IMG/VR virus record: IMGVR_UViG_3300045988_018328
Reading direction: 5' to 3' (one strand)
From: a virus
Taxonomy: Duplodnaviria; Heunggongvirae; Uroviricota; Caudoviricetes
DNA length: 22,956 nucleotides
Of the stretch, positions 766-1,098 are shown piece by piece. The translations under genes and the position numbers were made by a program. Under the pieces are notes generated by a model. The model did not search any database. It was not told where the DNA came from and was given only the letters and a program-made list of their open reading frames with translations. The number at the start of each line of letters is the position of its first letter. The stretch's first letter is position 1.

Positions 766-801
766 TTGCAAAACGTGCTGGATAGCAAACAAATTATTTG
801 A

Positions 802-821
802 TACTGTATAAATATACAGTT
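802..821. promoter_or_regulatory. LexA (SOS) box overlapping the promoter of the 841..1098 ORF
   Basis: TACTGTATAAATATACAGTT has CTG-N10-CAG with an AT-rich core, a near-consensus match to the E. coli LexA box TACTGTATATATATACAGTA. It lies between a possible -35 (TTGATA, 798-803) and the RBS GGAGAAG (829-835). Confidence 0.7.
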
Positions 822-840
822 ATTGCATGGAGAAGATAAG

Positions 841-1098
841 ATGCAGCAGTATCACTATCCACTGGAAGACGGATTTACCGAAAGGATTCACACGCCGGGA
901 GGCGTCAGGTCACTGGTGGAAGGATCGCACTTGATGAAATTACTCCGGGATCTCGATAAGGATGGATTTAATGTCGATGGCCCACTTGCCGAACTGACTG
1001 CACTGATTAACTACGTCACCAGCTCACAGATGTCTATGCGGGATCTGCAAACACATCTCGACTATTGTGCCGAACAATTACGAAAACAAACCAGATAA
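841..1098 (+). CDS. Small protein (85 aa) homologous to the C-terminal domain of the downstream antirepressor; putative SOS-induced antirepressor
   Basis: The track ORF 823..1098 starts at TTG; the ATG at 841 has a good RBS. Residues ...ERIHTPGGVRSLVEGSHLMKLLRDLDKDGFNVDGPLAELTALINYVTSSQMSMRDLQTHLDYCAEQL align with Ant residues ...SLIHSPSGVLGLTENSLLMNLLNQLQDDGHDVSGAAAELTTMFCYIVGVSKCLRDIQTHAEYINDKA. Confidence 0.55.
   Translation: MQQYHYPLEDGFTERIHTPGGVRSLVEGSHLMKLLRDLDKDGFNVDGPLAELTALINYVTSSQMSMRDLQTHLDYCAEQLRKQTR

Follow-up and report, generated by a model that had tools for sequence, protein, structure and literature searches.

A probable LexA-controlled antirepressor of the SPC32H type and a putative RNA-gated paralogue beside the tailspike gene of an epsilon15-like Escherichia coli prophage

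The closest described relative of the locus considered here is the antirepressor/repressor pair Ant/Rep of Salmonella phage SPC32H, which was reportedly described by Kim & Ryu in 2013 and Kim et al. in 2016 and is represented by the structures PDB 5D50 and 5D4Z. As recounted in papers that cite this work, the whole Ant of 86 amino acids (aa) binds Rep by contacting its tetramerisation domain, and Ant is made after the self-cleavage of LexA; one citing paper adds that Ant, as a tetramer, engages two Rep dimers and takes the Rep tetramer apart. Small antirepressors under LexA control are also represented by Tum of phage 186, AntC of N15 and GfoA, GftA and GfhA of the Gifsy prophages (Lemire et al. 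2011, PMC3121763). Other antirepressors are controlled by RNA. The C4 RNA of P1 and P7 is cited as blocking ant by pairing near its ribosome-binding site (Citron & Schuster 1990, cited in PMC7313666), and IsrK, orf45 and the antirepressor AnrP of Gifsy-1 form a characterised RNA switch, in which the translation of read-through transcripts awaits the action of short IsrK in trans (PMC4825925, Hershko-Shalev et al. 2016). Here we analyzed a stretch of 22,956 nucleotides (nt) of Caudoviricetes DNA (IMG/VR record IMGVR_UViG_3300045988_018328), hereafter the window, in which an 85-aa open reading frame (ORF), ant, is followed after about 300 bp by the gene of a 231-aa protein that joins a Bro-N head to an Ant-like tail. 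Taken as a whole, the locus is probably best explained as a switch composed of an SOS-gated Ant and an RNA-gated paralogue beside the tailspike gene.

By sequence identity, the source of the window is an epsilon15-like E. coli prophage of the genus Uetakevirus. Over positions 600-2200, the window shows 100% identity to the E. coli SCZE5 chromosome, where guaA and yfgI flank the prophage, and 96-99% identity to the temperate podoviruses phiV10, vB_EcoP_ZX5 (ZX5) and TL-2011b, all of them epsilon15-like Uetakeviruses. The product of ant (RefSeq WP_001188254.1) matched a single PDB sequence over residues 2-84 with an E value of 1.4e-46, namely chain E of 5D50 ('Anti-repressor protein'), which is the Ant of SPC32H. 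It also matched PHROG 450 (E 7e-48) and showed 86.7% identity to the annotated SPC32H ant by tblastn. Its Shine-Dalgarno sequence, GGAG at 829-832, stands eight bases before the ATG. The small ORF is, as judged from this homology, an orthologue of a published and structurally solved antirepressor and no new kind of gene, and its place in that family makes it much less novel than an earlier reading of the sequence alone (the sequence-only reading) had assumed. NCBIfam has no model for ant or the Bro-N protein, and Pfam has no family for the Ant domain, giving only a weak chance match to DUF724. RefSeq and most phage records, that of ZX5 among them, label the small ant 'hypothetical'.

Directly upstream of ant lies the LexA box TACTGTATAAATATACAGTT, which departs at two positions from the 20-nt consensus TACTGTATATATATACAGTA. 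Its CTGT-N8-ACAG core occupies 804-819, and the box stands 19 nt ahead of the ORF start. It was the sole match in the window at up to three mismatches, where 0 were expected from 100 shuffles. In the alignment, phiV10, SPC32H and Tyrion have the box at the same position, as does a Klebsiella phage whose copy carries a single half-site change; the box also occurs in ZX5, in TL-2011b and in L009, an E. coli prophage of the same kind at the same chromosomal site, and with one change in the related locus L010. The near-consensus box that the sequence-only reading had placed in front of the small ORF was thereby confirmed as unique in the window and conserved among relatives.

The third component is encoded outside the window. 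In the remainder of the prophage (L006, scanned over 13038-25388), a helix-turn-helix protein encoded at 18426-19010 (WP_000836290.1), beside a cro-like gene, is homologous to Rep and matches the Rep chains 5D50_A (E 4e-42) and 5D4Z (E 4e-20). Full-length homology, a LexA box directly upstream and a Rep encoded in the same prophage thus place ant with the SPC32H-type Ant genes. Because of this orthology with the SPC32H system, we consider it very likely that a LexA-gated Ant inactivates Rep in this prophage, as the proposal of an SOS-controlled antirepressor had it. The further proposal that the domain shared by the two proteins is the repressor-binding module would likewise agree, by analogy, with the binding of Rep by the whole SPC32H Ant and with the Rep homologue in this prophage. 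Between the E. coli and the Salmonella phages, Ant is conserved far more than Rep (L006 18426-19010 compared with 33739-34335 in the SPC32H record, L007).

The two systems are alike in the orthologous Ant (87% identity), the divergent orientation of ant and tailspike gene, the position of the LexA box, the homologous Rep and the presence of TTACC-N5-GGTAA palindromes. The LexA box of the window lies in the 195-bp gap between the minus-strand tailspike start (645) and the plus-strand ant, and the arrangement of the two genes in SPC32H is identical. The two systems differ in the degree to which Rep has diverged, weighed below, and SPC32H carries neither the isrK/C4 cassette nor the fused antirepressor. 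With Tum, AntC and the Gifsy antirepressors, the window shares the principle that the repressor stays uncleaved and is inactivated by a small protein under LexA repression whose gene lies outside the immunity region. The comparison with Tum and the Gifsy antirepressors made in the sequence-only reading therefore holds as a functional analogy, but not as homology. BLASTP gave no match at E<=10 between either window protein and STM2621.1n of Gifsy-1, which is encoded beside a dinI homologue and which we take to be a GftA-type antirepressor. Pfam found no DinI-like part in the window proteins, unlike Tum, which was compared by its DinI-like half and not by its sequence. In the temperate podovirus P22, the immI region (mnt, arc, ant, sar) places an antirepressor next to the tailspike gene and involves an antisense RNA. 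The window resembles it as an antirepressor-bearing second immunity region beside a tailspike gene with an antisense RNA, whereas the proteins, the regulators Mnt and Arc and the RNA are all unrelated.

The second antirepressor shares its tail with the first. In BLASTP, the small ORF matched residues 150-223 of the 231-aa Bro-N protein with 32 identities in 74 positions (43%, E 3e-16), and MAFFT gave 39% identity over 83 positions. The similarity noticed in the sequence-only reading thus survived a protein alignment, although the shared domain, put there at about 65 aa, is slightly longer, about 80 aa with 74-83 positions aligned. The one experimental study of a near-identical E. coli phage, that of ZX5, bears on this protein, since its ORF4 is identical to the window protein at 230 of 231 residues (99%). 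Overexpression of ORF4 brought the prophage titre down from 1e9 to 1e6 and reduced the repressor transcript by 75%, which fits an antirepressor. As far as the study was accessible, it gives three lysogeny proteins (ORF4, ORF12 and ORF21) and makes no mention of the small Ant as a lysogeny regulator, of the LexA box or of the RNAs. We infer that the fused domain binds Rep, and we lean towards the view that the second gene encodes an antirepressor against the same repressor family, gated by a Rep operator and by C4/IsrK in the manner of P1 immI.

The interval of about 300 bp between ant and the Bro-N gene, which the sequence-only reading had treated without an RNA leader, in fact holds an isrK-like RNA, a C4-like RNA (both found by Rfam) and a 35-codon ORF. 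The sequence TGCCATAGT at the isrK promoter is conserved in cassette-bearing phages, and isrK closes with a terminator at 1237-1256 in the terminator scan (stem 1237-1250, then a T run). The C4 segment CCTTTTAG (1324) is exactly complementary to CTAAAAGG, which is found both in isrK (1222) and at 1398, and a second C4 segment, GGTTAC (1334), complements GTAACC (1405). Across five loci (the window, L004, L005, L009 and L010), the C4 loop and both of its targets change together, with CCTTTTAG, CCGTTTAG, CCTTTGTAG and CCACTTAG as the loop sequences, and the second C4 element (ACGCCAA, AGACCAA or GTGCAAA) varies in step with its two partners. This covariation at three sites yields at least five specificity combinations among the five loci, two of which come from E. 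coli prophages that are otherwise almost identical and share an integration site, that of the window and L009. The variety of C4 loops suggests a second, RNA-based immunity specificity, comparable to that of P1 and P7. In ViennaRNA, the duplex energies of C4 with the leader and with isrK were reached by 12, 4 and 2 of 300 shuffles; as these energies are only better than most shuffles, we argue for C4 pairing from the exact complementarity and the covariation. Both isrK and C4 precede every fusion gene examined, in the window and four other loci with Bro-N, AntA or Rha heads, and they are not present in SPC32H, which has no fusion gene.

The cassette is homologous at the RNA level to isrK-orf45-anrP of Gifsy-1, with which it shares the terminated isrK RNA, the C4-like region with a short, putative leader ORF and the antirepressor gene. 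The context of the leader ATG, TTATGGTGGG, recurs in the Gifsy-1 isrK-anrP spacer, and the leader ORF of the window ends 21 nt before the antirepressor ATG. The differences are that AnrP combines an ORF6N-like head with an unrelated C-terminus and that the leader ORF in the window has 35 codons. AnrP showed no similarity to the Gifsy protein STM2621.1n or to the proteins of the window; a general rule that the tail of a large antirepressor is a paralogue of a small SOS antirepressor was considered and fails in Gifsy-1. The P1 promoter is controlled by Op51/C1. The window resembles P1/P7 immI in a promoter apparently under the main repressor, in a C4-family RNA whose loops are complementary to sequences upstream and at the downstream ribosome-binding site, and in a specificity that differs between close relatives. 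Unlike immI, it has no icd, its leader ORF lies inside the C4 region, its isrK hairpin carries the upstream targets, and its antirepressor consists of a Bro-N head and an SPC32H-Ant-type tail. Gene callers that translate through the C4 region produce false N-terminal extensions of the antirepressor (residues 1-80 of protein P0251), and spurious small 'ash family' ORFs are annotated there in a frame unlike that of the orf45-like leader (ZX5 record, L012, 2196-2309).

The palindrome TTACC-N5-GGTAA occurs six times in the window, where 0.33 copies are expected; with one mismatch at most allowed, the rest of the prophage has 10 copies and SPC32H 18. In both phages, clusters of copies are seen in the interval separating rep from the cro-like gene and also ahead of the leftward early operon, which leads us to infer that the palindrome is the operator of Rep (and Cro). 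In the window and in the Klebsiella, Tyrion and L009 loci, a copy occupies the positions 51-37 bp ahead of the isrK 5' end; phiV10 has one in the corresponding stretch, and in L010 a copy with one mismatch abuts the -35 element. The candidate half-sites are common to the window prophage and SPC32H despite the divergence of Rep. The palindromes are dispersed over the whole prophage and are nearly always intergenic, standing ahead of the integrase and the terminase, the two early operons, the replication/DUF1064 junction and the portal operon. Should the palindrome be the Rep operator, Rep would directly control many promoters, as C1 of P1 does with its dispersed operators.

On these grounds, a putative course of events can be laid out (Table 1). 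Host LexA bound at 802-821 would keep ant off, and DNA damage would lead to LexA self-cleavage and the production of Ant. By analogy with SPC32H, the Ant tetramer would then grip the Rep tetramerisation domain and split the Rep tetramer into two dimers, with loss of repression. The cassette that begins right after the ant stop codon would be transcribed from a promoter of its own, at which a likely Rep operator is centred near -44. C4 RNA would pair with the ribosome-binding site of the Bro-N gene and turn its translation off, as in P1 immI and Gifsy-1 isrK, and the isrK segment, which carries the same target sequences, could shift the C4 balance. In this way, Rep occupancy together with an RNA specificity code would gate the second antirepressor, which LexA would not control directly; it would most likely target the same Rep and serve for anti-immunity or commitment. 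A speculative addition is that SOS-driven ant transcripts may deliver the IsrK sequence and so unlock the second copy. Such transcripts may carry IsrK because the terminator scan detected no terminator between ant and isrK in the window. This coupling would not be general, since the genes are convergent in L010 and lie about 1.1 kb apart in TL-2011b.

Table 1. Positions of the features discussed, numbered from the first nucleotide of the window.
Feature	Position	Strand	Basis or remark
Tailspike gene, 5' part, divergent from ant	1-645	-	RefSeq WP_211086006.1; 17917-20046 in the SCZE5 RefSeq record (L001)
Candidate Rep operator TTACCTTTCAGGTAA	750-764		38 bp upstream of the LexA box; conserved in 5 phages
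LexA box (SOS box) TACTGTATAAATATACAGTT	802-821	+	2 mismatches to the 20-nt consensus TACTGTATATATATACAGTA
ant, 85-aa antirepressor, SPC32H Ant orthologue	841-1098	+	ATG 841, stop 1098; 5D50_E, PHROG 450
Candidate Rep operator TTACCTTTGCGGTAA	1130-1144		Directly beside the -35 element of the isrK promoter, centred at about -44
Promoter-like site TTTACA-17-CATAGT with TG	1146-1174	+	Consensus scan; +1 at about 1181, the isrK 5' end
isrK-like small RNA with terminator	1181-1256	+	Rfam RF01394, 77.9 bits (gathering score 50)
C4-like antisense RNA	1281-1366	+	Rfam RF01695, 77.7 bits (gathering score 45)
35-codon leader ORF within the C4 region, corresponding to orf45 of Gifsy-1	1285-1392	+	ORF list; PHROG 20442, E 2.4e-8
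C4 target (CTAAAAGG and GTAACC) over the Bro-N gene Shine-Dalgarno sequence	1398-1410	+	Exact complement of C4 segments
Second antirepressor, 231 aa	1414-2109	+	Pfam Bro-N; tail matches 5D50_E and PHROG 450
Bro-N head	aa 17-107, nt 1462-1734	+	PF02498, 76.7 bits (cutoff 25.6)
Ant-like C-terminal domain	aa ~148-231, nt 1855-2106	+	5D50_E, E 1.9e-13; PHROG 450, E 6e-36
Palindrome copy	2175-2189		Precedes small membrane-protein genes
Further palindromes	18931-18945; 21729-21761		TTACC-N5-GGTAA scan

Several observations weigh against this model. The Rep of the prophage is only 42% identical to that of SPC32H, while Ant is 87% identical. The consensus scan detected no sigma-70 promoter match for ant; the LexA box itself stands, and its overlap with the ant promoter, also part of the sequence-only reading, is plausible, TGGATA (779-784) and TACTGT (802-807), read by eye, being candidate promoter elements. 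For the second gene, the fused domain is only 39-43% identical to Ant and might have a target other than the resident Rep. The viable temperate phage phiV10 carries a frameshift inside the fused domain, which makes the second gene dispensable for such a phage. The ZX5 ORF4 experiment used a GST-tagged, overexpressed protein, and binding to Rep lay outside its scope. The AlphaFold2 model of the Bro-N protein, built on an alignment of 20 sequences, was unusable (mean pLDDT 49, pTM 0.34) and too poor for a fold search. The assignment of the palindromes to Rep follows from their location only. The phiV10 gene (3812-4491 in its record, L002) is split into 194 aa and a 29-aa ORF, annotated as two genes, and the identical frameshift break is present in two O157 typing phages.

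Some of these points would also suit a different role for the second protein, which may be a weapon against the repressors of heteroimmune Uetakevirus prophages rather than against the resident Rep. It would then be expressed on infection, before the C4 RNA of the incoming phage accumulates, as P22 and P1 Ant are in superinfection. The difference in C4 and target sequences between the near-identical prophages of the window and L009 recalls P1/P7 heteroimmunity, the fused domain has diverged from Ant (39% identity) into a clade of its own, and the gene is dispensable in phiV10. However, among 50,697 phage records, the fused form was present only in a subset of those that also have the small form, so its targets would still be repressors of the same family, and the overexpression of ORF4 lowered the lysogeny of ZX5 itself, which indicates that the protein can act on its cognate Rep. 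We regard this role as rather unlikely when set in place of action on the resident Rep, but the two do not exclude each other.

It is improbable, in our view, that the fused domain works without binding Rep itself, by co-assembling with the small Ant and poisoning or boosting antirepression. The two domains are paralogous parts of an oligomeric protein (Ant is a tetramer in SPC32H), the 22 columns that are invariant across both clades could include oligomer contacts, and in the window the genes are adjacent with no terminator detected between ant and isrK. Yet the ZX5 protein, overexpressed alone, was pro-lytic, unlike a poison, and the convergent genes of L010 and the spacing in TL-2011b mean that tight co-expression is not conserved. 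In TL-2011b, a phage isolated from an outbreak strain of enterohaemorrhagic E. coli, the extra DNA of about 1.1 kb between ant and the Bro-N antirepressor gene (1946-3034 in its record, L013) is annotated on the opposite strand as 'similar to hypothetical protein'.

The history of the domain returns us to the preferred reading, that of two antirepressors sharing one repressor-binding fold. A profile search of 1.8 billion representative proteins found 60 relatives, which are either standalone proteins of about 85-95 aa or proteins of 130-319 aa that carry the domain C-terminally behind a Bro-N, AntA, Phage_pRha or ORF6N head. A neighbour-joining tree separates the standalone proteins from the fused domains as distinct clades irrespective of the head, and the two copies within a genome are 22-39% identical, compared with 51-92% for orthologues between genomes. 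Heads are exchanged on similar tails: in L009, a tail with 92% identity to that of the window follows an AntA head, and in L010 the head is Rha. The small gene is the only one of the two in SPC32H, epsilon15 and the other Salmonella phages, and the homology between the window and phages of the SPC32H type stops exactly at the ant stop codon, where the cassette starts. Because of the separate clades, the low identity within genomes and the phages with the small gene only, we conclude from the sequences that the duplication of the Ant domain is old and that the two copies are ancient paralogues. The suggestion of the sequence-only reading that the small protein was excised from the neighbouring Ant had to be given up, as the clades are separate and old and every domain-bearing record has the standalone gene. 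The genes are adjacent and their similarity is clear, but a recent excision or duplication of the neighbour's C-terminus, or a local gene-conversion artefact, is hardly credible in view of the tree and the pairwise identities, the small gene standing alone in the Salmonella phages, and the four different heads, and a recent duplication of the Bro-N gene tail was rejected on the same tree and identities. The domain was found in about 35 of the 50,697 phage records, all of them enterobacterial phages or prophages and, where examined, Uetakevirus-like. Among 5426 complete E. coli genomes, 529 (about 10%) carry the small ant with this LexA box and 470 the fused domain.

On the 3' side of the antirepressor gene, four ORFs (2216-2404, 2406-2738 and 2836-2997 on the plus strand, 3027-3848 on the minus strand) encode a pair of small putative membrane proteins and two further products, of 53 aa and 273 aa, the larger one of unknown function. 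The 53-aa protein has a signal-peptide-like start and belongs to PHROG 14503 ('moron, membrane associated'), and the 273-aa protein belongs to PHROG 6118; Pfam gave zero matches for the proteins of this block (2216-3848). The genes at this position differ in phiV10, SPC32H, ZX5 and TL-2011b, and the block looks like a hot spot for accessory genes. Between terminase and portal genes, as in SPC32H, lies a tRNA gene (19268-19341, plus strand; Rfam 73.3 bits, RefSeq tRNA-Arg), with a TTACC-N5-GGTAA palindrome about 320 bp upstream of it.

The core of these findings belongs to a known and solved family, and each component is known singly; in the literature searched, we found no description of an SOS- and RNA-gated paralogue pair, of head swapping or of variable C4 codes in Uetakeviruses. 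Linking the 'hypothetical' records to the solved SPC32H system improves their annotation. The module would govern the timing of induction by DNA-damaging drugs in widespread prophages, including relatives in O157 and other pathogenic strains. More tentatively, Uetakevirus immunity might run through two channels that use one repressor-binding fold, an Ant that signals DNA damage through LexA and, as its ancient paralogue, a portable 'Rep-targeting' tail on swapped heads that is gated by the occupancy of its promoter by Rep and by a C4/IsrK code varying even among near-identical phages. If this is true, the fused copy would be an anti-immunity or commitment device like that of P1 immI, and the 85-aa domain alone would suffice for antirepression, so that the heads of the 'large antirepressors' would supply some other function. 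Because the repressor-binding part also stands alone in the same genome, the pairing offers a clean route to the function of the Bro-N, AntA, Rha and ORF6N heads of large antirepressors.

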